A stretch of 64,000 bases of DNA, from positions 6,006 to 70,005 of the forward strand of contig JAEUSF010000002.1 of assembly GCA_016788665.1 (NCBI GenBank), written 5' to 3'. The translations under genes and the position numbers were made by a program. The notes beneath the pieces are model-generated. The model was given only the letters and a program-made list of their open reading frames with translations. It was not told the origin of the DNA and searched no databases. Numbering within the stretch: position 1 is the stretch's first letter; each line of letters opens with the position of its first letter. Shown here piece after piece: positions 26,800 through 64,000 of the stretch. This DNA is from Candidatus Doudnabacteria bacterium. GTDB lineage: Bacteria; Patescibacteriota; Doudnabacteria; UBA920.

Positions 26800-26803
26800 A
26801 AAT

Positions 26804-28642: not shown

Positions 28643-30145
28643 CTAAAAAAGTGGTTTCAAAAACGGGAAGTACCGCGTTAACACATGGCCGACCAGGTTC
28701 ATAGCTACCTCAACCATGATGTCCTTCTCAATAAACTCCCGCCACGATTCCCGGCCAAGCGGCGCAGGCCTCGCGTGTGGCTTGTGTTCCGCGTGTTCTT
28801 CAACTGGGGGTTTCTCTCCTACGTTTTCACCGTTTTTCTTACGGTATACGACGTAAACTCCTTCATATTTTCGCCGTTCAGCGACAAGCTCTACGGCTTC
28901 CCGCTTGTGGGCGAACCTTCCCTTTGCGGCCGCACTGGCTTGCCCTACCTCATCGGCAAGACAAACCGGAACCCAAAAAATCCAGAACAATATCCAGTAA
29001 AGGAGCCAGAAGCCCACGCGGGCTAAAGGCCGTCCTTCATGTATGGCGCGAAATGGGATAACAATAGCCACCGCTTCGGAAAGCAGCGACGGTTTACCCG
29101 TCTTTTTAGCTTCGGGTTTTAGAGCCGGCAAGCTGTCCGGTTCCTCCGAAAAGGACCCGAGTTGGCTTTCCAGTGCCTTGCGGCGAGCATCCTGCTTTTC
29201 GCGAGGCGATGCCGAATTCTCGACTACCGTCTCTTCCTGCGTGCCGCGAGGGTTAAAGAGCAAGCTCAGCAACCCATACGACATGTAGAGAGAACTCCAA
29301 ACCCCGAGCCAGAAAATCAGGCCTAGGAGTTTGTTGTTGTTCCGCCGCCACTTTTCACCACACCAAGCATAAAAACCCTGCTCTGCATGGTGACCGTGAT
29401 GGCCAGCATGCCCTGCGTGTCCACCATGCTCATGAGCATGGCCATGGAGAACAGCCGCTACGTTCAGGTCGAGCATGTCTGCCCGGTGAACGTATACCGT
29501 TTCCTCGCCGTTAACCTGGAACCTGGAACTAAAAGTTCCTTGTTCCGAGGTTGCAATTCGGGTGCCGCTAAAAACAACGTCGGCCTTACAGCCAACACCG
29601 TCTTCAAACGTCTGCCCTTCCAGGCTCCATGCGTCTTCGGTCCCCGACACGGGGACAAAGCGAGTGTAGAGCGCGTAAACCGGGTCGGAGGACTTTGCAG
29701 CCTTAGGCTTTTCAGCCGTTGGCGGCACTTGTCCGGCCGCAGAACCTGCCGGTTGTTCTTCCGGCAAATCTGCAACGAACTCATCGGCGCCGAGCTTGAC
29801 GCCAACTTTTTTTAGCGCCTCTTTTTTATAGGCGCTTAAGTCAATGCCCGCTACCACCCCTTCTCCGTCTACCACTGAGAGAGTATAAACCTCTCCCCCA
29901 GTCTTGGACGGGTCTGGAATGGAATAAGCGCAAGGATCCGATGCCGGACCAAAGCACAAGGGGAACTCATGCGTCTGTCCCTGTCCGTTCAGGTAATACT
30001 TCACCCGAACGATTAGGGAAGACATTGTTCCCGAAACAAACAACCTTAGGTCCTTTTTTGGACCCTGATGCTGTTGCTGCTGCGGGTTTCCGCCTCCTCC
30101 TCCACCACCACCACCTGTGCGGTTGCGGTTTTGATTATTTCTCAT
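28643..30145 (-). CDS. Island protein C: membrane protein with poly-Gly/Gln N-terminus and a His-rich metal-binding-like segment (HGHAHEHGGHAGHAGHHGHH)
   Basis: Internal Met with GGAGGA SD 9 nt upstream; TM helices after the His-rich segment. Confidence 0.5.
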   Translation of the reverse strand: MRNNQNRNRTGGGGGGGGGNPQQQQHQGPKKDLRLFVSGTMSSLIVRVKYYLNGQGQTHEFPLCFGPASDPCAYSIPDPSKTGGEVYTLSVVDGEGVVAGIDLSAYKKEALKKVGVKLGADEFVADLPEEQPAGSAAGQVPPTAEKPKAAKSSDPVYALYTRFVPVSGTEDAWSLEGQTFEDGVGCKADVVFSGTRIATSEQGTFSSRFQVNGEETVYVHRADMLDLNVAAVLHGHAHEHGGHAGHAGHHGHHAEQGFYAWCGEKWRRNNNKLLGLIFWLGVWSSLYMSYGLLSLLFNPRGTQEETVVENSASPREKQDARRKALESQLGSFSEEPDSLPALKPEAKKTGKPSLLSEAVAIVIPFRAIHEGRPLARVGFWLLYWILFWIFWVPVCLADEVGQASAAAKGRFAHKREAVELVAERRKYEGVYVVYRKKNGENVGEKPPVEEHAEHKPHARPAPLGRESWREFIEKDIMVEVAMNLVGHVLTRYFPFLKPLF

Positions 30146-30563
30146 ACTTGACTTTCCTCCTACGGAAATGTCAAAGATCTCTTCTTGAGCGGTAAGTAAA
30201 CCGGTCTCAAGGATTCCACAAAAGTGGAATATCACCTTACGGTGAGTAAAACCTTGTAAAAGTGGTGCCCAATGTAAAACCCCGCTTTTTAGGGCGGGGC
30301 AAAACATTAGAATTTACAAGGTTTTGCCCACCACAAGCAAAAACATAAAAATATTCAATTATTTAATTTTTTAAACTAGCTAATTGCTGTAAATAAAATA
30401 ATTTTACTTACACCACCCAACTAATTCATGTATTGATTTTTCACTTACTACTTACTACGAGCTACCAGCTACTAGCTAGAAAATGGGGGGAAAGTTTATA
30501 AGCTCTCCCCCGCCTTTGTTATGTGTCTCCCGCCCTGTCCGTAGACAGTTTGGGAGAAAAGCG

Positions 30564-32165
30564 TTACTTCTTCGTGACAGGCAGATTCCAGGTTTGGATC
30601 TCTGCCTGGACTTCCTGCGCCTTGGTGGCCGCGTCGGGGTTGACGAGCGCCGTCTTTGGCGGCGTGTCTTTCCCAAGCAACCTCTTCTTACCCGGCTCCA
30701 CCACAAATGTGGTGTTACCGATTCCGGCAACAGCTTCAGCGAGCTTGACGGTTTCACCCGCCAGCTTGCCAAGACCCTCGCCGACAGGCTTAACCTCTTC
30801 GCGAACAATCTCCTTCACCCGGTCTTCCGACACGCCTTCCGACATGCCGTCAACCTTAGCCTGGAGAGCGTCAACCTTCTTTTGAGCCGCCTCGGCCTTC
30901 GCCTCGAGGAGCTTGTAACGCGTGTCTTCGAAGACCGCTCCCTTCACTCGCTTTTCGCGAGCCTGTTCAATCGCCGCAATAGCTTCCTTGCTCGTCCCCG
31001 CTTTCGAGGACGAAAGGAGCTGGATGAGTTTATTGTAATCCAGACCAAGCTCCTGGGCTTGACCCAACAGATACGACCTGAACAACTTCTCTTCGCCGGC
31101 GTTTCCGCCCACCATCTGCTTAATTGTGACCGCCATGCGGTCACGACTAATCCATTCGCCTGCAGAAACAATTTCCAAGGAAGCTTCCACTTCCTTGCCG
31201 TCGATTTTAACGGTGGGGTAATCACGCTTGGCGCCCGAAGACGCCTTAATCTTGAAACTAAATCCGCCGGGAACCGTTTTGACATCGGTAACAGCAATAT
31301 TGCTGTCCACGACCTCAATCGTCTTCCCGACAACACCTCGGCATACCATGGCGATTTCAGTTCCATCATCCGGAACTGCGTTGTTACGATACTCAGGGTC
31401 ACCGCAAGTGACCTTCGGTCCGGCAGCACGAACATCCGCCACCGCTCCAAACAGGAGCAGCAGAGCTACTGCGTGAGACGCCATGCCCTTTGCGGCACCC
31501 TTGCCCTTGCTCTTAATGAGCGAAAGGCCCATGAAGACAACAAAAATAATAAACGCTCCGATAGCTCCATACTTCAACAAAGAAAGCACGGCGCTCACCT
31601 GCTCAGACAAGTCCTTGACCTGCTTTTGCAGATCCGCGACCTGCTCCTTCCCAGCAGGACCTGCAAAGAGGGCCCGGATCGCATCTGCCCTGGTCTCTAG
31701 GCTTTCCAGCCGAGAGTCCAAGTCGTCCAGGTTGGTCTTCTTCTCAACCACATGGACTGTTATCTCACTCTCCCCCTCAACTTTAGGCTCGGACGAGTCC
31801 GAAACCTTGACCTTGAGGGTTATATCCCCGGCCTTGTCCGGCTCCACCACCAACTTATACTGGTCGGCGTGGTCCCCGACCGCCTCGAGTTTTGCCCCGA
31901 CGGAATCGGGGTCAACCGACGCGGACAATGTTGCCGTGTAGGGGGCCTTACCCCCCTTGATCGCAACGGTGACCGACGCCGGGCCACGGCTGGCCTCGAG
32001 TGTCCCGAACTCGGGGACGCTGACGGTGAGACCACCAACCGCCGGAGCAGCGGGCGCCTCCTTCGAAGCGCCAGCAGCCTTACGGCTACGCTGGGCAAAC
32101 ATTTTGTCAGTCGAGCCCGCGAGAAACGCGAGCGTTAGAAGCAGAGAAAAAACAAAACGGGACAT
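30564..32165 (-). CDS. Island protein B: large secreted/membrane protein, unknown function
   Basis: AAGGAG SD then MSRFVFSLLLTLAFLAGS signal peptide; internal TM helix; Ala/Val/Lys-rich. Confidence 0.5.
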   Translation of the reverse strand: MSRFVFSLLLTLAFLAGSTDKMFAQRSRKAAGASKEAPAAPAVGGLTVSVPEFGTLEASRGPASVTVAIKGGKAPYTATLSASVDPDSVGAKLEAVGDHADQYKLVVEPDKAGDITLKVKVSDSSEPKVEGESEITVHVVEKKTNLDDLDSRLESLETRADAIRALFAGPAGKEQVADLQKQVKDLSEQVSAVLSLLKYGAIGAFIIFVVFMGLSLIKSKGKGAAKGMASHAVALLLLFGAVADVRAAGPKVTCGDPEYRNNAVPDDGTEIAMVCRGVVGKTIEVVDSNIAVTDVKTVPGGFSFKIKASSGAKRDYPTVKIDGKEVEASLEIVSAGEWISRDRMAVTIKQMVGGNAGEEKLFRSYLLGQAQELGLDYNKLIQLLSSSKAGTSKEAIAAIEQAREKRVKGAVFEDTRYKLLEAKAEAAQKKVDALQAKVDGMSEGVSEDRVKEIVREEVKPVGEGLGKLAGETVKLAEAVAGIGNTTFVVEPGKKRLLGKDTPPKTALVNPDAATKAQEVQAEIQTWNLPVTKK

Positions 32166-32732
32166 GGACCACTCCTTGTGAACTTGAACAGAATTCAGAG
32201 GGGACGCCTCTGGCTTTGGGACAAATGGCGTCCTCTGCAAAAAAGTTTCAAGCACGCAATTTTACAGCCGACACTTAGTCAAATGTAAAGTGCGCTAAAA
32301 TAAAAACCTTTTTGCAAAGGACCACCACCTTCCACCTAACATCCGCAAAATCTGCAGCTATCTGCGTATCTGCGAATTGTAACGCTTTTAATCCTCCTAA
32401 TAAATTTATTTAATGTACAAGCCCGAATAGAAATTCCAGGCTCATATCTTTAGCTAAAACAAGCCAATTAGCTAAAAATATGAACCAAGCTATATATAGT
32501 ATTAAATTGACATATAATTATACTAGATTTGACCTAAAAAGTCAATATTTAGTCTGTTTATTGCTCATATTTAAAGCAAAAAAAATTTTCACTCCCTATT
32601 TTATAGCCGAAAACAGGCCATGGATGCATATACACCCATGGCCAAAATGCCTTAAAAGGCTAGTTGTACAAGGAGAGTGGCTTTTGCCTTTTTTGAGTAG
32701 AAAGGCATGTTCGCACGCAGATACTAAAATCT

Positions 32733-33590
32733 TTAGGTTTCGGGAGGGGGTTCTTCTGGAGATACTACGTTTCTTGTGGGCTTGTTTGCCCTAACGGTCT
32801 CCTCCCCACTATACCCGCTTGGAGGCTGTTTGCGCCGCGCCTTTTTATACCAAGGCCCAAACTCTTCTTCACCGTACCCGGTCTCGTTAAACTGCCTATA
32901 CTTGTAAGTCCACTGAAGCCTGCCGCTCCGCCAAAGCCAAACTATCATTCCAATCGTGCTCAGCAAGAGCAAAATTCCCAAAAGCCAAACGGTATTTCCA
33001 CGGCTCCACCGCACATTTTCAAACGGCTTCTTCCAGAGAGGCGGACGCTTTGGGGCAATAGGTTTTTTTACCACACCCGAACCCGCCAAAGACTCCAGCC
33101 GGGAAATTTCGGTCCTCTGGGCTATAACCTCTTTGCCCAAAGTACCTAGCTGTGCTCTTAAAGAAGCAACTTCTGCTTCCAAAGCATCAACCTTCCGCTC
33201 AAGCCCCCGCATTTTAAGCCCGCCGTCTTCTTCCGGCTTAACCAAGCCCGCCGTTCTGCCTCTTATGTTTCTTCCAGAAGCAGAAGAATGGCGCGCAAAG
33301 GCACCAAGCTCCTTCAAAAGCAGTTTGGCGGTTAAGCTCTGGCTTGGCTTTGCGTCTTTGGGCAAAAGAAAAAACTTGTTATGCAGTTTGCGGTAAAGTT
33401 TCGGGTCAAGCACACGCCCGTTTTCATCCTGCAAGGCATAAAGCAAATAAACGCTCTTGCCCGCCCGATTTAAATCCGCCATGGGTCCGTACTTGCTTGC
33501 TGCTATCCGCTCGACGTTGTGAGCAAAAACCTGAAACACGCACACCAAAAGTCCCAACACTGCACACCGCACTGTCCTTGTAACTAACAC
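32733..33590 (-). CDS. Island protein A: signal-peptide protein with coiled-coil and C-proximal TM helix (GTG start)
   Basis: AGGAGG SD 9 nt before GTG; MLVTRTVRCAVLGLLVCVFQVFA signal peptide. Confidence 0.5.
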   Translation of the reverse strand: MLVTRTVRCAVLGLLVCVFQVFAHNVERIAASKYGPMADLNRAGKSVYLLYALQDENGRVLDPKLYRKLHNKFFLLPKDAKPSQSLTAKLLLKELGAFARHSSASGRNIRGRTAGLVKPEEDGGLKMRGLERKVDALEAEVASLRAQLGTLGKEVIAQRTEISRLESLAGSGVVKKPIAPKRPPLWKKPFENVRWSRGNTVWLLGILLLLSTIGMIVWLWRSGRLQWTYKYRQFNETGYGEEEFGPWYKKARRKQPPSGYSGEETVRANKPTRNVVSPEEPPPET

Positions 33591-33724
33591 TTTTACTTGC
33601 CTCCTTAGAATTTTTAAAGCCTCATTTTTTGCGGCCTTAGGCTTTGACGCATTATTTAAAATGCGTCAAAACCAAAAACAGCCAACTTTCAAATTAGAGA
33701 GTAAGCCCAAAACCTTGAATATAA

Positions 33725-33767: not shown

Positions 33768-35015
33768 TTATGGCAATAAAGATTTAAGCCAACGCTTGGC
33801 TTTTTCTAGTGCGGGATTTTTCAAAAAAGCACCCAAGGAATTTTCAAGTCTTCCACTCGAAACAGTTCCATACTTTTGGCCCCACAAAACTAACCCCACC
33901 GCTGTAGCAAAAGCAGGTTCGCTAACCCTGTCTATAACCGTTTCTACGTTTTGACTAACGCCCAAAGCCGAAGGAAGGCGCAAATGCTTTTTGGCAAAGT
34001 CTACCACCCCGGGCAAATGGCTACCCCCGCCCGTTAAAACTATACCCGCTGGCAATTTCCCGTCTCTATTTATGCGTTTTAATTCCGCAATAACACGGTC
34101 GAAAATTTCTTCCAGCCGGGCTTCAATTATTTCCACAACCAAACCTCTTAAAGTGGTCTGCTGTTCAGACTGGTCTATTTGGTTTAAGAAGATTTCTTCG
34201 TTTTTATCTATAGCCTTTATATCGCAGTGCCCATACAACAGCTTTACCTTTTCTGCCGTTTCAATACTTGTCCTAAGCCCTATGGCAATGTCGTTGGTCA
34301 TATGCTGGCTGCCAATTGGGATAATTGAAGTATGCATTAAATCACCCTCTTCGTATACAGAAACTGCCGTAGTACCCGCGCCCAAATCTACCACACAGAC
34401 CCCCAAGTCTTTTTGTCTTTTACTTAAAACGCTTTCGGAAGCCGCTAAAACGCCCAGAACCAGCTCATTTATTTCCAAGCCCGCCTGCATAACGCAACGG
34501 CTTAAGTTTTTTATAAATGGGCTACCCGCCTGCACAATTATACTTTCGACTTCTAAACGAATACCACTCATACCAGCCGGATCTTTTATACCACTCTGGC
34601 CGTCTAGAGTAAAACTTTTTGGAAAAACGTGTAAAACTTCTCGGTTAGAAGGTATAGATATTGCCTGGCTGGCATCTACCACCCTAACAATATCTGCTTC
34701 GGTAATTTCGCCATCAGCTCTAGAAACTGCTATGACCCCATGGGAATTCTGGGACGTAACATGACTGCCTGAAACAGAAATATTTGCCGAATCAACTGGC
34801 ACACCTGTCATTCTCTCCACCCGTTCCAAAGCAGTAGAAATACAAGAAACCGCCTCCTCAATGTCCACCACCACACCTTTCCTCAGACCAGCCGAAGGAA
34901 CCTCGGCCGCACCTATAATTTGCACACTCAAACCGTCAGGCTTCACTTTGCCCTGAACAGCCCTAATATGACTAGTGCCTATGTCGAGACCTGTAATGTA
35001 TGATTCTTTTGCCAT
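33768..35015 (-). CDS. ftsA: Cell division protein FtsA
   Basis: Actin-like ATPase, ITGLDIGTSHIRAV...; 415 aa. Confidence 0.85.
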   Translation of the reverse strand: MAKESYITGLDIGTSHIRAVQGKVKPDGLSVQIIGAAEVPSAGLRKGVVVDIEEAVSCISTALERVERMTGVPVDSANISVSGSHVTSQNSHGVIAVSRADGEITEADIVRVVDASQAISIPSNREVLHVFPKSFTLDGQSGIKDPAGMSGIRLEVESIIVQAGSPFIKNLSRCVMQAGLEINELVLGVLAASESVLSKRQKDLGVCVVDLGAGTTAVSVYEEGDLMHTSIIPIGSQHMTNDIAIGLRTSIETAEKVKLLYGHCDIKAIDKNEEIFLNQIDQSEQQTTLRGLVVEIIEARLEEIFDRVIAELKRINRDGKLPAGIVLTGGGSHLPGVVDFAKKHLRLPSALGVSQNVETVIDRVSEPAFATAVGLVLWGQKYGTVSSGRLENSLGAFLKNPALEKAKRWLKSLLP

Positions 35016-35046
35016 TCAAAAGATGGAATTAGGAAGTAAGAATTAT
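35005..35046. repeat. Heptad repeat leader (GGAATTA GGAAGTA AGAATTA TGAAGTA) abutting the ftsA start; near-identical to the 45672-45704 element before topA
   Basis: Direct comparison: TTACTTCATAATTCTTACTTCNTAATTCCAT is shared. Confidence 0.7.
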
Positions 35047-35078
35047 GAAGTAAAAATTTACAACATAAACTCACAAAT

Positions 35079-35522
35079 TTATTTTAGTTTTTCTTTCAGT
35101 ACCTTTGCCAAGCTTGCACCGTCGGCATTATTGCCCGCCTTTGCCTTTAAAACTCCCATGGCTTTTCCAAAGTCAGCCGCGATAAAGCCACCTTCCGCAA
35201 TAACAGCGTCAGCTATTTTGCCCAATTCTTCTTCAGACATTTGGGGTGGTAAAAATTTAGACAAAATTTCCGCTTCTGCTAGCTCTTTGTCCTTTGCTTC
35301 CACATTCCCACCCTTTTCAAAGCCCTGCGCCGCTTCTTTACGTTTTTTTATTTCTGAACGGACCAAAGCCAAAATTTCATCTTCCCCCAAATCTTCAACC
35401 ATTTTAGAAACCTTCTCATTTTGAATACGGGTTTTTAAACCGCGTAAAACGCCCACCGCCACTGAATCCTTGGCCTTCATGGCAGTTATCATATCTTTTT
35501 CTATTTGTTGTAATGAAATCAT
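35079..35522 (-). CDS. GatB/YqeY domain protein
   Basis: MISLQQIEKDMITAMKAKD... family N-terminus (internal Met chosen); downstream of rpsU as in many bacteria. Confidence 0.7.
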   Translation of the reverse strand: MISLQQIEKDMITAMKAKDSVAVGVLRGLKTRIQNEKVSKMVEDLGEDEILALVRSEIKKRKEAAQGFEKGGNVEAKDKELAEAEILSKFLPPQMSEEELGKIADAVIAEGGFIAADFGKAMGVLKAKAGNNADGASLAKVLKEKLK

Positions 35523-35539
35523 GTTTATAATTTCAAATC

Positions 35540-35600
35540 TCAAATTACAAACTTCATCCGCCATTGGAGGATGAAATTTGATATTTGGAATTTGTTATTT
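35540..35600. repeat. Imperfect 26-bp-arm inverted repeat built from heptads (GAAATTT GATATTT GGAATTT GTTATTT)
   Basis: 21 of 26 arm positions pair; lies between rpsU and yqeY. Confidence 0.55.
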
Positions 35601-35850
35601 ATCTTCTGCCAAACCTTCTGGTCGGCACTATTAGCTTACCTTGTTTTTTAAGCTCTTCTTTTTCTGCTTTAATTTGGGCTCTTCGGCGCGCAGCGACTCT
35701 TTGTAAATTACGGGACTTAGTGCTCTGGAAAAAACGAGTTTTTCTGGCACGAATAAGCACGCCGCTCTGCTGGATTTTGCGGTTAAATCTTCTTAACAAG
35801 CTGTCGAACGATTCGTTGTCTTTACGTTTTACTTCTACCAATCTACTCAC
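35599..35850 (-). CDS. rpsU: 30S ribosomal protein S21
   Basis: MSRLVEVKRKDNESFDSLLRRFNRKIQQSGVL... Confidence 0.8.
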   Translation of the reverse strand: MSRLVEVKRKDNESFDSLLRRFNRKIQQSGVLIRARKTRFFQSTKSRNLQRVAARRRAQIKAEKEELKKQGKLIVPTRRFGRR

Positions 35851-35954
35851 ACTCCTTTCAAAAGTGAGGAACAGGTTTAGAACAAATTCCTAAATACAAT
35901 TCCCGGTAGGTTAAAAATCTTCAATTATTATAAAATAATTTTAGTTTTTGGTCA

Positions 35955-36062
35955 AATATGCTTACTGGAGTTAGGAATTTGGAAGTAGGAATTAAAAACA
36001 CCTTCATAATATGAAGGTGTTTAGTACGAACTCCTAACTCCTAACTCCTAATTCCAACTTCT
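35955..36062. repeat. Compound element: perfect hairpin AACACCTTCAtaatatGAAGGTGTT flanked by (GGAGTTA)n/(AACTCCT)x3 heptad arrays in inverted orientation
   Basis: Direct reading. Confidence 0.65.
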
Positions 36063-36073
36063 TGACTCCAAGC

Positions 36074-36409
36074 CTATTCTGGCAGCTTCTTTCCTCCCAG
36101 CAAGTGCAAGTGCAAGTGCGGAATAACCATACCCCCGTCGCGTCCGACATTAAATATTAACTTATAACCCGTCTCCCCAACCCCGAATTTCTCTGCCATT
36201 TCCTTAGCTGCAAAAACCAGTTTTCCCATAAGCAGCTCGTCTTCCGGCTTTGTGTGATGCACGGAAACAATATGTTTTTTAGGTATGGCCAACAAATGCA
36301 CAGGGGCTTTGGGTAAAATATCGCGTATAACAATCAGGTCATCATTTTCCAGCAACACCGGCGCTTCAATAGTTTTATTTACAATATTACAAAATACACA
36401 ATCTTCCAT
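36074..36409 (-). CDS. HIT-family nucleotide hydrolase
   Basis: Histidine triad HLHLHLL. Confidence 0.8.
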   Translation of the reverse strand: MEDCVFCNIVNKTIEAPVLLENDDLIVIRDILPKAPVHLLAIPKKHIVSVHHTKPEDELLMGKLVFAAKEMAEKFGVGETGYKLIFNVGRDGGMVIPHLHLHLLGGKKLPE

Positions 36410-36461
36410 TTTTTTGCTTACCAGCTGACCTGCTTATAAGCTTGTCAGCTATTAATTTTGC

Positions 36462-37760
36462 TTAACGACCAAGTCTTTTTTTAACCTCTTCTACTATTTT
36501 ATCATAAGAAATTATTTCCTGCATGCCGCTTTTTACATCACGCAGTATAACCATTTCTTCCACCGCCTCTTTCTGACCAATTATCAAAGCTATTGGAGCC
36601 TTTTGCGCCTCGGCAGCTTTCAGTTGATTCTTTACTCCCACATGGCCAAAGTTGTCATACACTACCACCTTGCTCATAGTCAGATCACGGAACAATTTTA
36701 ACGCACGCTTAGCCGCCAATTCCCCCAAAGGAACCAAAAAAACTTCAGACAAATTTTCCTGTTCAATTAGCACACTTGTCGAAACCACCAAACGCTTTAA
36801 AACCAACAAGCTGCCAACAAAGCCAAAACAACAATAGTTTTTTCCACACAAATTCTGAATTAAGTCGTCGTGATATCCGCCTTCACCCAAAATTACAGTT
36901 TTATCTTCAACTTTATATTTAATAGCAAAATTTGTCCTGCTGTGACCAGCCGCTCCGGCATAAAGCGGGTTTAACTGGTAAGCTATGCCTAGTTCATCTA
37001 AGGCTTCCAAAATATTTGTAAAGTGCTTATTAGAATCTTCGCTTAAAAAGTCCAAAACCGTAGGCGCTTCCGACACAACCGCTCGGCAGTCCAACCTGTC
37101 ACAACGAAGCACATTAAGCGGCCTATTTTGTAAATGCACATGACAAGCGTCACACAAATCCAGCTTCCTATTCTGCAAAAATTCACCCAAACTTTCCTGA
37201 TAAACCTTCTGGCAATTTGCATCACCAATATTGTTTATTTCCAAAATAGCTTCGTTAAGCCCTAAAGATCTTAAAAGCTCCCACACAGAAGCAATGACTT
37301 GCGCTTCTGCTAAATGTCCAAAATTCCCAAAAATCTCCATACCAAATTCCAAATCCTGCTCAACTATACCCTGGTTATGGTCTAACTTGCTAACAAAACC
37401 GCTATAATGGAATTTCTGAAAACTACCCTGTTCAAATAGCTTATGCTCATAGTAGGCTCTGAGCAAGGAAGGCAGAATACCACTCCTAACGGCAATATTT
37501 TGGCTCTGAGAAAGCGAACAGACCTGTTTAAACCTGTGAGGCCTTTCCCTATAAAACTGCTCGTATAATCTCAGCTCTTCCAATACTGGCAACTCTGCTT
37601 TAGAAAAGCCATATATATTGCACACTCTTTGAAATTTTCTCAGTATAGCATCATCTAGCGGGTCAGAGCCTGCTAAAATATCTGCCGAACCAGGCAAACT
37701 ACCCACTTTTTTTGGTACATATGCAGATGCTGTGCTGAAATTTTTTTTCGGTCTACCCAT
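36462..37760 (-). CDS. Class II aminoacyl-tRNA synthetase-like protein, divergent histidyl-tRNA synthetase family, with a HisRS/ThrRS-type anticodon-binding domain
   Basis: C-terminal ...PIALIIGQKEAVEEMVILRDVKSG... HGTP-anticodon-like domain; N-terminal catalytic motifs are degenerate. Confidence 0.45.
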   Translation of the reverse strand: MGRPKKNFSTASAYVPKKVGSLPGSADILAGSDPLDDAILRKFQRVCNIYGFSKAELPVLEELRLYEQFYRERPHRFKQVCSLSQSQNIAVRSGILPSLLRAYYEHKLFEQGSFQKFHYSGFVSKLDHNQGIVEQDLEFGMEIFGNFGHLAEAQVIASVWELLRSLGLNEAILEINNIGDANCQKVYQESLGEFLQNRKLDLCDACHVHLQNRPLNVLRCDRLDCRAVVSEAPTVLDFLSEDSNKHFTNILEALDELGIAYQLNPLYAGAAGHSRTNFAIKYKVEDKTVILGEGGYHDDLIQNLCGKNYCCFGFVGSLLVLKRLVVSTSVLIEQENLSEVFLVPLGELAAKRALKLFRDLTMSKVVVYDNFGHVGVKNQLKAAEAQKAPIALIIGQKEAVEEMVILRDVKSGMQEIISYDKIVEEVKKRLGR

Positions 37761-41968: not shown

Positions 41969-42541
41969 ATGAAAATTATAGTTGGCCTAGGCAATCCGGG
42001 AAAAAAATACGAGCTCACCCGTCACAACGTCGGATGGAAGGCTTTGGAATACATAATTTCAAATTTCAAACCAGCCCGAACTGTCGGTCATGGCGGGTTT
42101 CAAATTTCAAAATCTGAAAATAAATTTAATTCCGAAATAGCAGAAGATACAACCGGCGATGTTAAAATTATTTTTGTAAAACCGCAAACGTTTATGAACC
42201 TCTCGGGTTCGGCAGTAAGCGAAATTATAAATTATTATAAGATAAATACTCAAAACGACCTACTTGTAATTCACGACGAAATAGACCTCCCATTGGGCTC
42301 TATAAAGTTTACCAAGTCTTCTTCTGCTGCCGGGCACAACGGAGTCAAGAATATAATAGAAAATTTGGGTACACAAAACTTTTGCAGAATCCGGATAGGC
42401 ATAGAGTCCCGCAGCTCACGCGAACAAATCCCCACCGATGCATTTGTTTTACAAAATTTCAGCGAAGAAGACTTAAAAAAACTTAGCAACGATGTATTCC
42501 CCAAAACCCAAACCGAAATTGAAAAATTTTTAAGCTTATAA
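41969..42541 (+). CDS. pth: Peptidyl-tRNA hydrolase
   Basis: MKIIVGLGNPGKKYELTRHNVGW; terminator hairpin 42544-42575. Confidence 0.85.
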   Translation: MKIIVGLGNPGKKYELTRHNVGWKALEYIISNFKPARTVGHGGFQISKSENKFNSEIAEDTTGDVKIIFVKPQTFMNLSGSAVSEIINYYKINTQNDLLVIHDEIDLPLGSIKFTKSSSAAGHNGVKNIIENLGTQNFCRIRIGIESRSSREQIPTDAFVLQNFSEEDLKKLSNDVFPKTQTEIEKFLSL

Positions 42542-42576
42542 AACCACAATCCTTTAAAAGATCGTGGTTTTATTTT

Positions 42577-42611
42577 GAAATTTGATATTTGGCATTTGTA
42601 ATTTGATTCGC
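42577..42611. repeat. Heptad repeat element (GAAATTT GATATTT GGCATTT GTAATTT), near-identical to the one at 35567-35594
   Basis: 23 of 24 nt identity with the 35571 copy. Confidence 0.65.
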
Positions 42612-42878: not shown

Positions 42879-44003
42879 TTGCTTTTATTTATGCGGCAAA
42901 ATACAAAAAATTCACAAAATGCCCTATTTTTACACGGCCTAAACCTAATGCCAGAACTAGGCCCTGCGAGGCTAGTTAAACTTTCCTCAACATTTAGTGA
43001 ATACGAAAAAATTTACGGGTCCAAAGAAGAAGAATTAATCGCAGCCGGCTTTGAACAAACATTGGCGAAAAAAATTTTAAACCACCTAAAAACCATAAAC
43101 CTAGAGGAGGAAGCCGAAAAACTTTTTAACGCCAACGTTTCTCTGCTTACCCCCGAACACAACAACTACCCAAAGCTTCTACGGGAAATACCAAAATTTC
43201 CGCCCTTACTCTACACAAAAGGACACATGAACACCGAAGAAGAATTGTGCATTGCGGTTGTCGGAACACGACAACTTACTAACTATGGACGAGCAATCAT
43301 ACCCGACTTAATAGGTCCTATTGTAGAAAAAGGCATTACTATAGTTTCCGGTCTTGCGTTTGGAGTAGATGCCGAAGCTCACAAACAATCAATTTCAAAA
43401 CAAAAGCGAACAATCGCCGTTTTAGGTGGCGGGCTAGACAACTCAAGTATTTACCCAAAACATCACCAATTTTTGGCTCAGCAAATTTTAGACTCCAATG
43501 GTGCCCTCATAAGCGAGTATCCATTGGGCACCCCTAACTTTAAACAAAATTTTGTTGCTCGCAATCGTATAATTTCGGGCCTGAGTGTAGCTACAATAGT
43601 GATTGAATGCAGCTTAGACAGCGGAAGCCTTATAACTGCTAATCATGCTTTGGAACAAAACCGTCAGGTATTTGCCGTACCAGGACCTATTTACGCACCC
43701 ATGTCCAAAGGCCCTAACAACCTAATTAAAATGGGAGCAAAGCCCATAACCTTAGCATCCGACATTTTTGAAGAACTCAACTTGGAAAATTTGGAGCAGG
43801 AAAAAGAAAACGCTACAATTTTTGGAGACACACCCACTGAAACATGCATATTAAAACTTTTATCTAAAGAACCGGTCAATATAAATTCCATAATAAAAAT
43901 TTCTGGACTCTCACCCTCGGAAACAACCTCTGCACTAACATTTTTAGAAATTAAGGGAAAAGTTAAAAACTTGGGCGGACAGCAGTATATACTATCCCGA
44001 TAA
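42879..44003 (+). CDS. dprA: DNA processing protein DprA/Smf
   Basis: ...VVGTRQLTNYG...SGLAFGVDAEAHK... Rossmann-like DprA core. Confidence 0.85.
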   Translation: MLLFMRQNTKNSQNALFLHGLNLMPELGPARLVKLSSTFSEYEKIYGSKEEELIAAGFEQTLAKKILNHLKTINLEEEAEKLFNANVSLLTPEHNNYPKLLREIPKFPPLLYTKGHMNTEEELCIAVVGTRQLTNYGRAIIPDLIGPIVEKGITIVSGLAFGVDAEAHKQSISKQKRTIAVLGGGLDNSSIYPKHHQFLAQQILDSNGALISEYPLGTPNFKQNFVARNRIISGLSVATIVIECSLDSGSLITANHALEQNRQVFAVPGPIYAPMSKGPNNLIKMGAKPITLASDIFEELNLENLEQEKENATIFGDTPTETCILKLLSKEPVNINSIIKISGLSPSETTSALTFLEIKGKVKNLGGQQYILSR

Positions 44004-45268: not shown

Positions 45269-45661
45269 AAAAGGCTTCCTTACAAAGCCTGCAAATTCAG
45301 AAGCTTACCACTTCAACAAACGCGTCCAACACCACAACGACGCCCTCAGGGTGACGTGCTGCCAAAGCAATTAGAAAGGCTAAGCCTAGAAGAAGACCTA
45401 GACTGAGCAAGAAATCCCTGCTCATTAAATATTCCTTCATCTTTCCCCCTAATTATACTCTACGAGTGAGGTAATAATGCGTGCCCAGATTTTATCACAC
45501 ACCCAAACAAAAAAACTCACCAAGCCCAACAACACACCTGCCACGGCCTTGTCATGGAAAAATTATAACAAATAATAGTGTTCTGTAAATATTTTATACA
45601 AAAATTTTGTCGGGTGTTTGACAAATATTTACCGAATCAGTAGAATCACTTTTGTACTTGT

Positions 45662-45704
45662 TGAAAATTCTTACTTCATAATTCTTACTTCATAATTCCA
45701 TTCC
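45662..45704 (+). repeat. Heptad repeat leader (AAAATTC TTACTTC ATAATTC TTACTTC ATAATTC) abutting the topA start
   Basis: Perfect 14-bp tandem duplication; shared with the ftsA leader. Confidence 0.7.
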
Positions 45705-49802: not shown

Positions 49803-51062
49803 CTATTCATACCTCATAGCTTCAACAGGATCTAATTTAGAGGCTGCTCTAGCCGGCAAAACTCCAAAAATCATACCTATGCTTGCCGACACCCCAAACC
49901 CAATTGCAATTGAGTACAAAGGCACGGAAAAAGTCCATGCCAAATTTGCTGACTTAGCTATTAAAGAAACAATCCACCCAAGGAAAGCACCCGCCAAAAT
50001 TCCCATTATCCCTCCCAAAACTGTTACTAAAACCGACTCTATTAGAAACTCATTTAAAATATCGTTTTCTTTTGCACCAAGCGCCTTTTTGAGCCCTATC
50101 TCAGACGTTCTTTCAGTTACTACAACATACATAATGTTCATAATACCCACACCGCCCACAATGAGGGCAATTGCAGCTATGGCTATTAGCAAGATTGTTA
50201 TACCATTAAATATTGTATTAAAAGTATTTAAAGCATCTGCCTGAGTCTGAACAAAAAAATCATCTTTGTCGGGATTATCTGCGTCTATGTTGTGGTTATG
50301 CCTCATAACCAACCGAATATCTTCCGCTGTCGCTGCTGCCAAATCCTGATCCTTAACTTCGACTATAGCAAAAAGCAGATAATCTATACCCAAAAGTTTT
50401 TTCTGGGCTGTATTTATAGGCATGTAAATTACACTGTCTTCATTTCCGCCCAGCCCTCCCCTTGGTTCATAAACGCCAATCACCTGAAAATTCAATTCAC
50501 CTATTCTGACCAGCTTGTCTAGAGGGTTTTCGTCCCTAAACAAATCTTCCGCTAACTGGCTGCCCAAAATAATTACCTGCGCCCCGCCCGTATCTTCCGC
50601 CATGCTGTAAAAACGGCCCTTGGAAAGCTTGCCTTTATCTATGTCAAAACGAGAAGATGAAGCACCGTACACAATGACATTTTTGGCCGTATTTTGGTAA
50701 GAAGTAACCTTTTGCCCCACCACCATACCGTACGCATTTTTTACGTTTGGCAACCTTTTTATATCTTCGACATCGCGGTTTTTAAAGCTGGTTATAGCGA
50801 CCGGTGAACGGGCACGACTCTGGTCGTTACTCGCGGCACCCGCTCCTCTATTTTTTGTTGTTGGCGGTACACGAGTCTCTACAAAAAGGGTATTTGTGCC
50901 AAAAGCTTCCAACTGGGAATTAATTAAACTTCTAAAACCTTCCCCTGCTGACAACACTAAAATAACCGTTGCAATACCAATTACAATACCCAAAGTGGTA
51001 AGCATGGTCCTAACCGGATTTGAACGCAGAGCTTTTATAGATTGTATGAAAGCAGTAAACAT
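49803..51062 (-). CDS. ABC transporter permease, MacB/FtsX family
   Basis: N-terminal TM, large periplasmic domain, C-terminal FtsX 3-TM bundle. Confidence 0.8.
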   Translation of the reverse strand: MFTAFIQSIKALRSNPVRTMLTTLGIVIGIATVILVLSAGEGFRSLINSQLEAFGTNTLFVETRVPPTTKNRGAGAASNDQSRARSPVAITSFKNRDVEDIKRLPNVKNAYGMVVGQKVTSYQNTAKNVIVYGASSSRFDIDKGKLSKGRFYSMAEDTGGAQVIILGSQLAEDLFRDENPLDKLVRIGELNFQVIGVYEPRGGLGGNEDSVIYMPINTAQKKLLGIDYLLFAIVEVKDQDLAAATAEDIRLVMRHNHNIDADNPDKDDFFVQTQADALNTFNTIFNGITILLIAIAAIALIVGGVGIMNIMYVVVTERTSEIGLKKALGAKENDILNEFLIESVLVTVLGGIMGILAGAFLGWIVSLIAKSANLAWTFSVPLYSIAIGFGVSASIGMIFGVLPARAASKLDPVEAMRYE

Positions 51063-51160
51063 AAAATTTCAAATACCAAATTACAAATTTCAAATAAATA
51101 TTAAACTCTCTAATTTCCAATTTCTAAGTAATGCATTATATTTGAAATTTGAAATTATTA
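51063..51160. repeat. Heptad-period degenerate tandem repeats (AAATTTC AAATACC AAATTAC AAATTTC ...)
   Basis: About 14 consecutive heptads between the two permease genes. Confidence 0.65.
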
Positions 51161-52420
51161 TTCGTATCTCAACGCTTCTATAGGGTTCAGTTTTGAAGCT
51201 TTGTATGCGGGATACAATCCAAAAATAACTCCAGTTAATATAGAGACTCCGACAGCGAGTAAAATCGAATTAATAGATATATAGAAAGACCAGTCGTAAC
51301 CCAACGCTCCCATAAGCAGCGAAATTAAATAAGCCACCACCGCCCCAACAACTATACCAATTACGCCTCCCAAAAAGGTCAACGACCCGGCTTCAAGCAA
51401 AAACTGGTTTCTTATGGCTCCATTGCCAGCCCCAACAGCCTTTCTGAGCCCTATCTCCCGGGTTCTTTCCGCAACTGTAACCATCATGATATTCAAAATT
51501 CCTATTCCGCCTACCACCAAAGCCACCGCAGCCATGGAAGTTAAAAATATTTTCAACGCATTGGTTATAGTGGTAAGAATATTGGCCGCATCGGCAATGC
51601 TTCGAACGGTAAAGTCGGCGTCTACATCTTTTTTAATTCTGTGTCTCTCCATTAACACAACTTTTATGTCGTCGCGCGTACCACTTACGTTCTCCGCCTT
51701 ATCAACTTTTACATTTATTGCCTGTAAATGCCGTATACCCAAAAGCTGCTTTTGCCCAATGTCTAAAGGCATGAATATTTGGTCGTCCATATTTTGGAAA
51801 AAAGCACTCCCTCTTTCTGCCACCACTCCAATTACCCTAAGAGGAATTCCTATACTATCCCCCACCCTTACCTTTATAACTTGTCCTATTGGGTCTGCGC
51901 CACTTTGACCAAATAATTCTTCGGCAACATATGAGCCGAGGACAACCACGTTGTCATTACCCTCACCCTCCCTTTGGTCAAAAAACCTGCCCGCCTCAAA
52001 CTCTATTGTCGTAACCTGCGGATATGTATGTTCTGTACCGGTAAAATAAGTGTCGAGCTCCTGATTCTGCCAAGAGACAGAAACGCTTCCCTGCACAGCT
52101 GCTGTAACAGCAGCTGCGTTAGGAACGCGCGAACTATCGCGTATAGCATCAGCATCTTCTTTAGTTAAGGTAGTTACTACAATACCAAACACTTGTGAAG
52201 GAGGCCCCTGCTCGTCACTCTTTCCCGGCTGTACTGACAACAAATTGGAGCCCAATTTAGTAACTTGTCCAACGACTAAAACCTGTGCTCCGGCACCCAA
52301 TGCCATTATTACAATAACACCAGCCACGCCAATAACAATACCCAGTATGGTTAAAAACGACCTACCTTTGCGAGCCAAAAGAGTACGGAACACTAATTTT
52401 ATTGTGGCTAAAAAATTCAT
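51158..52420 (-). CDS. ABC transporter permease, MacB/FtsX family (paralog)
   Basis: Same architecture as 49803-51062. Confidence 0.8.
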   Translation of the reverse strand: MNFLATIKLVFRTLLARKGRSFLTILGIVIGVAGVIVIMALGAGAQVLVVGQVTKLGSNLLSVQPGKSDEQGPPSQVFGIVVTTLTKEDADAIRDSSRVPNAAAVTAAVQGSVSVSWQNQELDTYFTGTEHTYPQVTTIEFEAGRFFDQREGEGNDNVVVLGSYVAEELFGQSGADPIGQVIKVRVGDSIGIPLRVIGVVAERGSAFFQNMDDQIFMPLDIGQKQLLGIRHLQAINVKVDKAENVSGTRDDIKVVLMERHRIKKDVDADFTVRSIADAANILTTITNALKIFLTSMAAVALVVGGIGILNIMMVTVAERTREIGLRKAVGAGNGAIRNQFLLEAGSLTFLGGVIGIVVGAVVAYLISLLMGALGYDWSFYISINSILLAVGVSILTGVIFGLYPAYKASKLNPIEALRYE

Positions 52421-55011: not shown

Positions 55012-55481
55012 AAGGAATAATATTATAGAACAAAGACTTTGGGCTGTGTAGATATTAAGGCAAGTTTAATAATTTTGGCTATAAATAAGCACACAAAATA
55101 CAAAGCCATTTGCAAAGGGCCGTCCTATTTTAAGAGGACAGCCATTTGCTTAAGTCACGTTTTATCTGTCGGCTTCGATCAAGCCGCCAAGACAAAATTA
55201 ATATCCCAAACTGTGGAATTTTAATTTTGGTGGGTTCGGTGGGTATCCTTTTTCCCCCGAACTTTCCACCACTCGCAAGCTCGTGGTACCGGAAAGCTCT
55301 CCTCCAAAAGCCGGCAAAAATCATTGGTTAGTGGGGATCGGTCACCTCACGCTACTCTCCTCATCCCTTCGGGAATCGTCGAGTGACGCTGCGGCGACCC
55401 CCGCCACTATTGAAAGCTGCGCTCGCTCGCTTTCAATTCCCGCCTAAAGGCGGGACCATTCCTTTTCGATCCCCTACCACC

Positions 55482-55518
55482 AAAAGAAGTCATGCAATTG
55501 AATTGCATGACTTCTTTT
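55482..55518 (-). terminator. Perfect 18-bp-arm palindrome immediately 3' of tRNA-Lys (AAAAGAAGTCATGCAATT g AATTGCATGACTTCTTTT)
   Basis: Direct reading; followed by TTTTGG on the minus strand. Confidence 0.6.
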
Positions 55519-55593
55519 GGTGGGTTCGGTGGGGATCGAACCCACGACAAACGGCTTAAAAGGCCGCTGCTCTACCAACTGAGCTACGAACCC
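55518..55593 (-). tRNA. tRNA-Lys (anticodon TTT), CCA encoded
   Basis: Manual cloverleaf: acceptor GGGTTCG/CGAACCC, D arm GCTC-AGTTGGTA-GAGC, anticodon loop CTTTTAA, T arm GTGGG-TTCGATC-CCCAC. Confidence 0.8.
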
Positions 55594-63912: not shown

Positions 63913-63920
63913 ATGTCGAA

Positions 63921-63990
63921 ATTTAAATATTAAATATTAAAATGACAATTCCAAATTAAAATTCTTAATTTTACTTTGTCATTTTCAGCT
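63921..63990. repeat. Heptad repeats (AAATATT x2 ...) containing the inverted repeat AAAATGACAA-N27-TTGTCATTTT upstream of grpE
   Basis: Direct reading; this is not a CIRCE. Confidence 0.5.
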
Positions 63991-64000
63991 TTGACCCGCC

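Follow-up and report, generated by a model that had tools for sequence, protein, structure and literature searches.

The stretch singled out by the original prediction lies between two co-oriented genes of a 64-kb window (the whole stretch of DNA that was analysed), both of which encode MacB/FtsX permeases with MacB_PCD and FtsX domains (permease 1 and permease 2; Table 1). Judged by sequence similarity, the host genome is Doudnabacteria-like Patescibacteria (CPR), and its closest relatives are Patescibacteria/Doudnabacteria-type MAGs. The spacer is an imperfect palindrome with heptad arms at 51129-51157 (AAUUUCA type in the mRNA) and 51063-51105 (UUUGNAA type); because these arms are complementary runs of 7-nt units, one long A/U-rich hairpin is possible on the polycistronic mRNA. 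The arm pair 51079-51096/51139-51156 is 94% complementary, with an alternative register at 51065-51081/51140-51156, and the predicted RNA fold is a single hairpin that begins at the stop codon and ends 2 nt short of the AUG, with 1 nt unpaired at the start of the spacer. Thermodynamically this hairpin is unremarkable, 14 of 200 shuffled sequences folding equally well, and an Rfam search of the spacer returned no family (sole noise match, E=0.85).

The original prediction placed this spacer among twelve sites of a genome-wide family of intergenic repeats with strict 7-bp phasing. Genes and spacers were called with a greedy ORF map, a simple heuristic that leaves 8.9 kb of the window intergenic, and self-matches were compared with 300 order-3 Markov simulations. 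Intergenic DNA exhibited a self-match excess at lags 7, 14 and 21 (z=5.9, 6.1 and 3.7, respectively) and only weak values at lags 10 and 11 (z=1.5 and 1.1), in agreement with a phasing of 7 bp rather than the helical 10-11 bp; coding sequence showed period 3 only, with no period-7 signal. A sliding scan (21 comparisons, threshold 16 matches, lags 4-15) detected 10 arrays at lag 7 (8 of them intergenic), 9 at lag 14 and 0-2 at each remaining lag, and TRF reported 14 arrays with at least 2.8 copies, 11 of which have period 7. Ten or eleven of the twelve sites were recovered by TRF or the lag-7 scan. Low complexity arising by chance in AT-rich spacers, or an error of assembly, would suit the flagged spacer itself, which is very A/T-rich and has a low TRF score (2.4 copies only), but is hardly credible for the arrays at large: the Markov simulations fail to give lags 7, 14 and 21, comparable arrays arise only at 7 and its multiple 14 among lags 4-15, GC-containing units (GTAGCTT, AACTCCT) are also present, and the architecture is repeated in dozens of independent assemblies. 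AT-rich low complexity alone, the explanation that the original prediction had set against its own, is thus rejected.

Our sample consists of the window plus about 0.5 Mb of related loci, the relatives being MAGs with unreliable taxon labels, and it is to this scope that the term "genome-wide" narrows. Per 10 kb there are 1.7 period-7 arrays in the window and 1.0 in close relatives, against 0.13 in CPR loci further removed and 0.06 in loci from outside CPR. Strict 7-bp phasing holds in the present genome but not across its close relatives, where units of 7, 8, 9 and 10 nt make up 53, 26, 30 and 8 arrays, respectively. Intergenic DNA exceeds coding DNA 12.7-fold in array density, the number of arrays per kb is 1.39 in co-directional, 0.61 in convergent and 0.41 in divergent spacers, and 34% of arrays stop no more than 10 nt from a facing start codon compared to 17% upon random placement; a metagene profile aligned on starts and stops diluted the lag-7 matches too far to be read. 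The 64 kb alone use at least five unit vocabularies that are unrelated to one another, and relatives add many more, with two to five copies per family in the window (F1 family at 5 loci, F2 family at 3). On inspection, F1 units keep positions 1 and 4-7 constant and vary at positions 2-3.

Table 1 Heptad-repeat elements of the window, with tandem-repeat detection and predicted RNA folds (energies in kcal/mol)
Element	Position	Strand	Description	Tandem-repeat detection	Predicted fold
groES-groEL spacer	717-855	-	spacer-spanning hairpin; 805-850 is the 5' arm, G-poor in mRNA; inverted repeat 734-759/825-850	805-850 drifts in phase; TRF period there 9/15	-22.5; z=-2.06; 6/200 shuffles as good
cyclophilin-ndk spacer hairpin	6654-6727	-	GCUACAA-type heptads adjoin ndk AUG; Pfam NDK, Pro_isomerase	TRF 6656-6687, period 7, x4.6	-29.7; z=-4.2 to -5.1
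F1-family array (TTTGAAA type, + strand)	9238-9281	-	directly 3' of cobalamin adenosyltransferase-like stop (gene 9277-9933, Pfam)	TRF 9254-9277, x3.4; lag-7 scan 9247-9288	
spacer upstream of TraG/TrwB-like gene (ATG at 15109)	15110-15202	-	AAAATGC heptads and complementary GCAGAAx arm	TRF 15120-15152, x4.7, and 15161-15200	-21.4; z=-2.9 (15120-15210)
two adjoining heptad arrays (ACTTACT, then AGCTACN)	30436-30478	-	GC-rich island spacer	TRF 30443-30458 and 30455-30478; lag-7 scan at least 17/21	
yqeY-ftsA spacer	35016-35078	-	small hairpin, then G-free 14-nt-unit array (ACUUCAU AAUUCUU ...) ending 8 nt before ftsA AUG	TRF 35026-35058	
rpsU-yqeY spacer hairpin	35523-35609	-	F1-family heptad arms		-25.8; z=-3.8
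HIT-gene 3' element	35955-36073	-	terminator-like core hairpin (about 35997-36021), AACACCTTCAtaatatGAAGGTGTT, with heptad arms: GGAGUUA 5', UAAUUCC/UACUUCC 3'	TRF 36029-36059, x4.6	-48.2; z=-7.0
unpaired F1-family array	42574-42611	+	adjoins terminator-like hairpin (42538-42573) of peptidyl-tRNA hydrolase gene		
topA 5' leader	45662-45704	+	perfect (AATTCTTACTTCAT)x2.4, no G, ends 4 nt before AUG	TRF 45666-45698, 100% matches	MFE 0; 200/200 shuffles fold at least as well
flagged element	51063-51157	-	95 nt, entire spacer between permease 1 (51158-52420) and permease 2 (49803-51062)	TRF 51140-51156	-14.2; z about -1.2 to -1.6
grpE leader	63913-63992	-	hairpin 63932-63992, then (AAUAUUU)x3.4 adjoining AUG; inverted repeat	TRF 63919-63941	

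The loci listed by the original prediction are real, but several had been mis-delimited because gene starts were not known to it. The groEL start is placed at 716; in the long ORF the YqeY Pfam match covers only residue 19 onwards, and this puts the real yqeY start at 35522; and rpsU (PF01165), absent from the earlier list, lies at 35610-35841. The near-identical pair of F1 copies, GAAATTTGATATTTGG[A/C]ATTTGT, does exist at 35573 (35573-35595) and 42577, with 22 of 23 nt identical, and its coordinates had been quoted 2-3 nt off. At 35005-35046 and 45662-45704 the true unit is 14 nt, and the array upstream of the ftsA gene has 27 of 28 nt, in phase, in common with the topA leader. The imperfect inverted repeat described around a core hairpin at 35955-36062 was confirmed, and directly after this element follows the rpsU promoter, TTGACC-17-TATAAT (35955-35927, 11/12 matches). 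An inverted layout had been noted for "several" sites; it is in fact the main architecture, and the location in presumably transcribed spacers had been overlooked. We also considered the GC-rich island around 30436-30478 as an rRNA operon, a candidate ruled out by an Rfam search of the window that gave two tRNAs only and no rRNA.

A partner test that admitted units with one mismatch proved too permissive in AT-rich DNA, and was replaced by an ungapped-alignment test with two composition controls. This test assigned an inverted partner no more than 150 nt away to 46 of 148 arrays, compared to 2 and 10 in the controls. Five window folds (717-855, 6654-6727, 15120-15210, 35523-35609 and 35955-36073) reach z of -2 to -7, and of 25 co-directional spacers, 15 have a fold with z<-2. 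On these models, most arrays are arms of small hairpin-forming spacer elements in presumably transcribed gaps. A subset, besides the hairpin arms, is made up of G-poor, unstructured 5' leaders abutting AUGs; direct copies end a few nt from the start codons of topA, ftsA, grpE, ndk and permease 2.

Our preferred reading, at a probability of roughly 0.55, is that small palindromic elements, dispersed over the spacers of a Doudnabacteria-like CPR clade, are built from the heptad arrays, and that they combine slippage-tuned arms with mobile-like spread and use at the RNA level. Such elements would fill transcribed non-coding gaps (stop-start junctions within operons, 5' leaders and 3' ends), would spread between loci and genomes as miniature mobile or IVS/REPIN-like DNA or via gene conversion, and would shift in arm length through replication slippage, in steps of about 7 nt. 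The host would tolerate them, and probably use them, at the level of RNA: the hairpin base may join the upstream stop codon to the downstream AUG, a terminating ribosome would melt this base, and the stop-start adjacency would preserve translational coupling in a Shine-Dalgarno (SD)-poor organism. Long stems are likely sites of double-strand-RNase (RNase III type) processing or of stability control, comparable to rRNA IVS, and unpaired G-poor copies would give structure-free leaders beside the AUG. Co-transcription, RNA processing and coupling by the elements are what we infer.

Signals acting at the DNA level, such as promoter UP-like elements, curved DNA, terminators or replication-related sites, would agree with the copies that adjoin terminator-like hairpins (35955-36073 and 42538-42611) and the rpsU promoter, and with hairpins that could extrude as cruciforms. 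We consider such signals very unlikely, since array density is lowest in divergent (promoter-bearing) spacers, 10-11 nt periodicity is absent, a consensus scan of 34900-36500 gave no intrinsic-terminator-like sites, and the topA array sits 3' of a conserved -35/-10 pair (45618-45646) and should therefore be transcribed. Furthermore, folding slightly favours the sense over the antisense strand (better in 21 and 10, respectively, of 35 paired spacers; p=0.047), a weak asymmetry. A promoter reading of the heptads themselves (TTGAAA ... TATTT) was discarded, as neither the spacing nor the other unit families fit.

Alternatively, a trans-acting protein (such as an S1, cold-shock-domain or CsrA-like protein) could bind the arrays as single-stranded RNA or DNA, reading them in steps of about 7 nt within a post-transcriptional regulon, a version of the heptad-recognizing factor of the original prediction. 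Unit vocabularies common to loci within the genome agree with this, as do the third of arrays within 10 nt of a facing start, the G-poor unstructured arrays adjoining the topA, ftsA and grpE AUGs, and the scarcity of SD-like motifs, present in 9 of 55 genes and at none of the listed repeat-abutted starts. Similarly, such a regulon, with a role in translation, has been proposed for the TAACTGA heptamers of marine Beggiatoaceae (MacGregor 2015, PMC4679880), and for TTTTGAA repeats close to start codons a regulatory role is inferred in a Nostoc preprint (10.1101/2022.06.06.494920). However, the presence of at least five unrelated units in 64 kb, with more in relatives, the unit length of 7, 8, 9 or 10 across sister genomes, and the many arrays that are paired in stems and so present the sequences of both strands all weaken the case for a single recognizing factor. 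Family swaps at one junction in close relatives are likewise ill-suited to a conserved regulon, and we regard this explanation as unlikely.

Comparison of the same junctions in relatives bears on how the elements arise. The gap between permease 1 and permease 2 measures 2-22 nt in distant relatives and 61-174 nt in the close clade, where the spacers (n=16; z<-2 in 11, range -0.5 to -7.9) mostly form a single hairpin over most of their length, with unit periods of 7-11 and sequences that differ by genome; the junction between the ATPase gene and permease 1 follows the same pattern. At topA, six genomes have differing G-poor repeat leaders behind a conserved promoter, and distant genomes have short leaders. 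Among related contigs, several loci of one genome carry the same element family, as +/- pairs. Arms in L006, L010 and L016 are identical at 57-60 of 62 nt (92-97%) at a third-codon identity of only 0.41-0.46; L009 and L010, with 94% identical protein, nevertheless have different elements; and L001 and L013 (74% identical) have one element in common that is replaced in the window (90% identical to L001). In these sequence comparisons the elements behave like dispersed families whose distribution conflicts with host relatedness, although the conserved arms could instead reflect strong purifying selection, not transfer.

The original prediction had also offered a lineage-specific slippage microsatellite class. 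In its neutral form, a lineage-specific slippage bias to about 7-nt units under weak selection, with neither role nor mobility, would explain perfect young arrays (the topA array, (TTAGAAC)x4.3 in L006 and a 9-mer x12.4 in L016), the depletion of arrays in coding DNA, and the differing unit number in a homologous spacer, as between ATPase and permease 1, where L001 exceeds the window by 46 nt, additional heptads among them. Heptameric SSRs are, moreover, reported to be over-represented in many bacteria, for which a polymerase footprint has been suggested (PMC4692102). Lineage-specific densities and copy-number changes between relatives uphold this part of the claim, but slippage alone is insufficient, given inverted partners far above controls, arms that are 92-97% identical despite saturated synonymous sites, families at several loci and the conflict with host relatedness. 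The lack of constraint proper to a slippage SSR class is not seen either: the same 28-nt or 23-nt sequence recurs at unrelated loci, F1 units vary at two positions only, and divergent spacers are about 3.4 times poorer in arrays per kb than co-directional ones, both being non-coding. A purely neutral origin is accordingly improbable.

Exact-protein look-ups and a metagenome scan yielded no same-species contigs (best identity 71%), and no insertion or copy-number polymorphism was seen directly. As to signatures of mobility, we found no transposase (none among ~30 proteins scanned), no target-site duplication and no other such mark. An origin of the units from target-site duplications was rejected, as it predicts direct repeats, not inverted arms.

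Heptanucleotide repeats were reportedly described by Mazel et al. in 1990 as the STRR (short tandemly repeated repetitive) sequences of heterocystous cyanobacteria, in which one heptamer occupies about 100 loci per genome; we know of no association of STRR with IVS-type loop ORFs. The window arrays resemble STRR and the Nostoc GGGGA(C/T)T and TTTTGAA repeats in that their 7-nt units stand in tandem and keep to non-coding DNA, fall into several families, also form inverted pairs with stem-loop potential and lie close to start codons, and in that length and sequence change rapidly between related strains. They differ in their host, which is CPR and not a heterocystous cyanobacterium, and in a unit length that drifts to 8-10 nt in sister genomes. 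By analogy, the repeats are best regarded as a cousin of the cyanobacterial heptamer repeats that appears to have spread in one CPR lineage. A cyanobacterial STRR identity, considered on the basis of 40% GC and heptamers, was ruled out by the Patescibacteria relatives and by the absence of STRR units: neither these (CCCCAGT, TTGGTCA, CAACAGT) nor the Nostoc or Xanthomonas units occur in tandem in the window. For Calothrix PCC7601, "three tandemly repetitive heptanucleotides" are mentioned, as cited in PMC4692102. The repeat TAACTGA of marine Beggiatoaceae is present in two to six heptamer copies, mostly a few nt upstream of start codons, with a patchy phylogenetic distribution that suggests horizontal spread (PMC4679880). 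A subset of direct copies near starts and the rarity of SD-like motifs are common to our arrays; Beggiatoaceae, however, have one fixed heptamer in almost only direct repeats, against many families and about a third inverted pairs here, and TAACTGA occurs in the window as five single copies with no tandem pair.

Like REP/REPIN/BIME sequences (Bertels and Rainey 2011, PMC3116915), the elements are imperfect palindromes or inverted doublets that form families in transcribed extragenic space, and they may be likened to REP/REPIN copies, many per genome, that act as miniature mobile DNA. REP arms, unlike those here, have no internal tandem repeats, and REPINs depend on a RAYT transposase. REP hairpins between cistrons can set relative mRNA stability, to which the spacer hairpins here may be compared; Newbury et al. 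reportedly linked REP-type hairpins to mRNA stabilisation in 1987.

Intergenic heptamer repeats, known from cyanobacteria since 1990 and later from Beggiatoaceae and Xanthomonas, have to our knowledge no accepted origin or function. The phenomenon now appears in a very different, genome-reduced lineage (CPR), in which non-coding DNA is scarce, making it unlikely that the repeats are carried for nothing; a literature search for such repeats in Patescibacteria found no report. Orthologous junctions can be compared across dozens of genomes, and a descriptive oddity becomes a set of testable hypotheses on mobility, on processing by double-strand RNases and on how translation could be coupled in the absence of Shine-Dalgarno motifs. 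In practical terms, the elements inflate spacers, confuse start-codon calling and could act as strain markers in CPR metagenomics.

A concrete link between heptamer repeats and IVS-type hairpins with small loop ORFs comes from the relatives, in which five loop ORFs and one remnant all lie between inverted arms, and ORF-less copies have the same arms. The ORFs are of two types, PF05635/TIGR02436 four-helix-bundle IVS proteins and TIGR04256 GxxExxY nuclease-like proteins; stem-loops with inverted arms and a PF05635 loop ORF occur in L027, L009, L005 and L010, with a remnant in L004. The window holds no IVP or GxxExxY gene, and its element copies are ORF-less. In rRNA, IVS are hairpins cut by RNase III for which horizontal transfer is presumed, and rRNA insertions of CPR bacteria can contain IVP ORFs (bioRxiv 10.1101/2024.02.27.582315). 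The elements here have in common with 23S rRNA IVS a stem-loop of about 90-500 nt, inverted arms, a loop that is empty or holds a four-helix-bundle IVS-protein ORF, and a sporadic, apparently horizontally acquired distribution, but they lie between protein-coding genes and not in rRNA helices, and their arms are tandem-unit arrays. A more specific proposal, which we advance tentatively and with considerable doubt, is that the elements are a hitherto undescribed class of miniature mobile "IVS-like" hairpin cassettes of CPR that home into mRNA stop-start junctions and leaders, not rRNA. Loop proteins of autonomous copies (Avd/IVP-like four-helix-bundle, GxxExxY PD-(D/E)XK) would then drive or guide mobility or bind the arms, the 7-10-nt units would serve as iterated recognition or register units, and ORF-less copies, those of the window included, would be non-autonomous derivatives. 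Were this so, cyanobacterial and Beggiatoaceae heptamer repeats might share a basis; both groups are probably also rich in IVP-like four-helix-bundle and GxxExxY families. L014 carries a nested element copy, and among the arm duplexes of ORF-bearing copies the sense strand is the more stable in three of five, via G-U pairs.

Self-similarity of the window's intergenic DNA (8.9 kb, from a simple non-overlapping ORF map) was compared at lags 1–30 with 300 order-3 Markov simulations, and exceeded them at lags 7 (z=5.9), 14 (z=6.1) and 21 (z=3.7), but not at lags matching the helical repeat (z=1.5 at lag 10, z=1.1 at lag 11). Coding DNA of the window displayed the codon period alone, with no period-7 signal. 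A sliding scan (21 comparisons, ≥16 matches, lags 4 to 15) returned ten arrays at lag 7, eight of them intergenic, and 0–2 at each other lag with the exception of lag 14 (nine); likewise, period 7 accounted for 11 of the 14 arrays with at least 2.8 copies detected by TRF. Because the period-7 excess goes beyond AT-rich low complexity, the original prediction of an intergenic heptad-repeat family stands: 10 or 11 of its 12 sites were recovered, the two copies it described as near-identical match at 22 of 23 nt, and the hairpin core it placed at 35955-36062 is present. These statistics, together with recurrence in independent assemblies, exclude chance or artefact as the source of the arrays, across 64 kb of this genome and MAG fragments of its relatives with heuristic gene calls.

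To find relatives, we took the permease adjoining the flagged site, the spacer between two MacB/FtsX permease genes (permease 1 and permease 2), and scanned a single genome from each species with it. The closest were Patescibacteria MAGs (90%, then 78–60% amino-acid identity) under varying labels (Doudnabacteria, 'Saccharibacteria', Falkowbacteria and others), which ruled out a cyanobacterial host, our first thought given the STRR repeats of heterocystous cyanobacteria. The genome is Shine-Dalgarno-poor, with GGAG, GAGG or AGGA at -18 to -4 in 9 of 55 genes versus 4 of 55 in a control window. Hexamers resembling a -10 element are frequently close to start codons, and the spacing of TATAAT-like hexamers (10–40 nt from the start codon at many genes) suggests mRNAs that are short or near-leaderless. 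Gene starts were corrected for groEL (716), yqeY (35522) and the TraG-like gene (15109), and rpsU, too short to pass the length threshold of the ORF lists, was recognized with its own promoter at 35955-35927; a 102-aa ORF antisense to it (35585-35893, plus strand) is probably spurious. Once gene boundaries were corrected, all of the predicted sites fell in transcribed-looking gaps.

The window arrays take two forms. In the paired form, complementary runs of units lie on either side of a loop, and the fold is one hairpin occupying the entire spacer. The flagged spacer is of this kind: its arms (51079-51096 / 51139-51156) are 94% complementary, with an alternative pairing register shifted by one unit, and when it folds, 1 nt stays unpaired beside the stop codon and 2 nt ahead of the AUG. 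Its energy is unexceptional because the sequence is nearly pure A/U, and this copy is thermodynamically among the weakest elements. In the unpaired form, the sense strand of the array has little G and runs up to the AUG; the topA and ftsA leaders, belonging to unrelated genes on opposite strands, are identical at 27 of 28 nt in phase and in sense orientation in both. The units of the window fall into at least five vocabularies (TTTGNAA, TAATTCC/TACTTCC, GCTTGTA, AAAATGC and AAATATT).

Repeat elements, rpsU and related loop-ORF elements, with coordinates in the window or in numbered loci of related genomes
Feature	Source	Position	Strand	Details
groES-groEL spacer hairpin	window	717-855		z -2.1
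cyclophilin-ndk spacer hairpin	window	6654-6727		z -4.2
Hairpin upstream of TraG-like gene	window	15120-15210		z -2.9
rpsU-yqeY spacer hairpin	window	35523-35609		z -3.8
HIT 3' element hairpin	window	35955-36073		z -7.0
Flagged permease 1-permease 2 hairpin	window	51063-51157		z -1.2 to -1.6
topA leader, unpaired array	window	45662-45704		MFE 0; 200/200 shuffles fold at least as well
ftsA leader, unpaired array	window	35026-35058
grpE leader, unpaired array	window			G-poor in sense
rpsU, ribosomal protein S21 (PF01165)	window	35610-35841	-	TTG start, clear AGGAG
Loop-ORF element	L027	11126-11548
Loop-ORF element	L009	9510-10000
Loop-ORF element	L010	9525-10000
Loop-ORF element	L010	65-481
Loop-ORF element	L005	about 400-880
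Loop-ORF remnant	L004	11270-11536		35 aa

TRF counts in the close clade (0.5 Mb; 53 period-7, 26 period-8 and 30 period-9 arrays) and in more distant CPR (317 kb; 4, 6 and 3, respectively) indicate that the arrays are clade-specific and their exact period genome-specific. Pooling window and close loci (n=148 arrays), intergenic DNA had 12.7-fold the array density of coding DNA, and the number of arrays per kb reached 1.39 in co-directional, 0.61 in convergent and 0.41 in divergent spacers. A strong inverted partner lay within 150 nt of 46 of the 148 arrays, versus 2 and 10 in two composition controls.

We regard orthologous junctions as the most telling evidence. The permease 1-permease 2 gap measures 2–22 nt in distant relatives, often as an overlapping TAATG, versus 61–174 nt in the close clade (16 members), where most of the spacers form one hairpin over most of their length (z<-2 in 11 of 16; range -0.5 to -7.9), with arms of 7–11-nt units whose sequences vary from genome to genome. 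The ATPase-permease 1 junction follows the same pattern. Between permease 1 and permease 2, L009 (11270-12176) and L010 (11270-12140) have an inserted gene (192–234 aa) that lacks repeat arms and a family assignment. The conserved promoter upstream of topA (TTGACA-N17-TAnAAT) leads into differing G-poor repeat leaders in the window, L009, L010, L006, L007 and L023, and into a short leader in distant relatives; being downstream of this promoter, the topA arrays lie inside the 5' UTR. DNA-level signals fit poorly with such a location and with the scarcity of arrays in divergent spacers.

The elements behave as dispersed families rather than local microsatellites. ATPase-permease 1 arms of L006, L010 and L016 are identical at 57–60 of 62 nt, while their permeases are 74–77% identical and flanking third-codon positions 41–46%. 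L009 and L010 share 94% protein identity yet carry different families at this junction, as do L016 and L014 (91%) and L006 and L005 (91%). Conversely, L001 and L013 (74%) have in common an element between the permease genes that differs from that of the window, 90% identical to L001. Family distribution thus conflicts with host relatedness. A given family can also turn up, in +/- pairs, at several places in one contig, and one composite spacer (L014 5489-5646) nests a hairpin of AATTTCC / TTGGAAATT units in the loop of a hairpin of TTAGAATAA-type units. Slippage appears to operate on the arrays too: the ATPase-permease 1 spacers of the window and L001 are homologous at both ends, L001 being 46 nt longer with extra heptads, and the 3' arm of the L016 permease 1-permease 2 spacer (11327-11438) is a perfect 9-mer array (AATCTTGTC, 12.4 copies) that looks like a very recent expansion. 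Purely neutral slippage explains part of the picture, accounting for copy-number change and perfect arrays, but leaves unexplained the inverted pairing, the conserved arms and dispersed copies, and the co-directional spacer bias.

Five hairpins in relatives, plus one decayed remnant, carry a small ORF in the loop between housekeeping genes, and inverted unit arrays flank all six. Four of the five ORFs encode four-helix-bundle '23S rRNA intervening-sequence proteins' (PF05635/TIGR02436) and the fifth a GxxExxY PD-(D/E)XK-family protein (TIGR04256/PF13366); other genomes have ORF-less hairpins with matching arms at a junction where relatives carry a loop ORF. We infer that the elements originated as miniature mobile or IVS/REPIN-like DNA, or as gene-conversion copies, with arms that would lengthen or shorten through slippage in steps of ~7 nt, and that cells tolerate them, and probably make use of them, at the RNA level. 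A hairpin from stop codon to AUG would hold stop and start adjacent; a terminating ribosome could then open its base, preserving the tight coupling that relatives get from overlapping stop/start codons, in an organism that seldom uses Shine-Dalgarno sequences. Unpaired G-poor copies would yield structure-free leaders. A reading at the RNA level draws modest support from better folding of sense than antisense (21 versus 10 of 35 paired spacers, p=0.047) and from G-U pairs favouring the sense strand in three of the five ORF-bearing elements. Stems of 20–35 bp are natural substrates for double-strand-specific RNases. The one home known for the loop ORF family is the rRNA IVS, which RNase III excises and which is believed to move horizontally (10.1101/2024.02.27.582315).

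Cyanobacterial STRR and other Nostoc heptamers, Xanthomonas GGGAATC repeats (PMC4692102) and Beggiatoaceae TAACTGA repeats are the same kind of phenomenon as the window arrays; REP/REPIN elements (PMC3116915) resemble them in architecture, and rRNA IVS resemble the relatives' elements in their loop ORFs. The elements belong to none of these classes, as the defining unit sequences are absent, the host differs and there is no rRNA context. A heptad-reading protein, proposed for the TAACTGA repeats (PMC4679880), fits partly: it agrees with array proximity to start codons and with vocabularies within a genome, but sits badly with the number of vocabularies, with units that differ in length and with family replacement at a given junction. 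The literature searched yielded no reports of such elements in Patescibacteria.

Elsewhere in the window, a GC-rich island (26000-33600; GC 0.45–0.56 versus 0.36–0.44 elsewhere) was rejected as an rRNA operon, and its long ORFs (27656-28633, 28643-30307, 30564-32255 and 32733-33590) matched no Pfam family. Its boundary spacer (26800-27023) folds very strongly indeed (-112 kcal/mol, z=-9.8) and contains perfect 21-nt inverted repeats (26805-26825 / 26868-26888). Scattered DNA-uptake/transfer genes (7581-9020, 13841-15109, 25279-26799 and 42879-44000) encode a ComEC-like competence protein, a TraG/TrwB-like coupling protein, a T4SS-pilin-domain protein and DprA. A 701-aa ORF (23071-25176) contains two copies, 91% identical, of a 36-bp unit (23715-23785), and a perfect 23-nt palindrome (55477-55523; arms 55477-55499 / 55501-55523) shares 6 nt with the 3' end of tRNA-Lys (55518-55593, minus strand).
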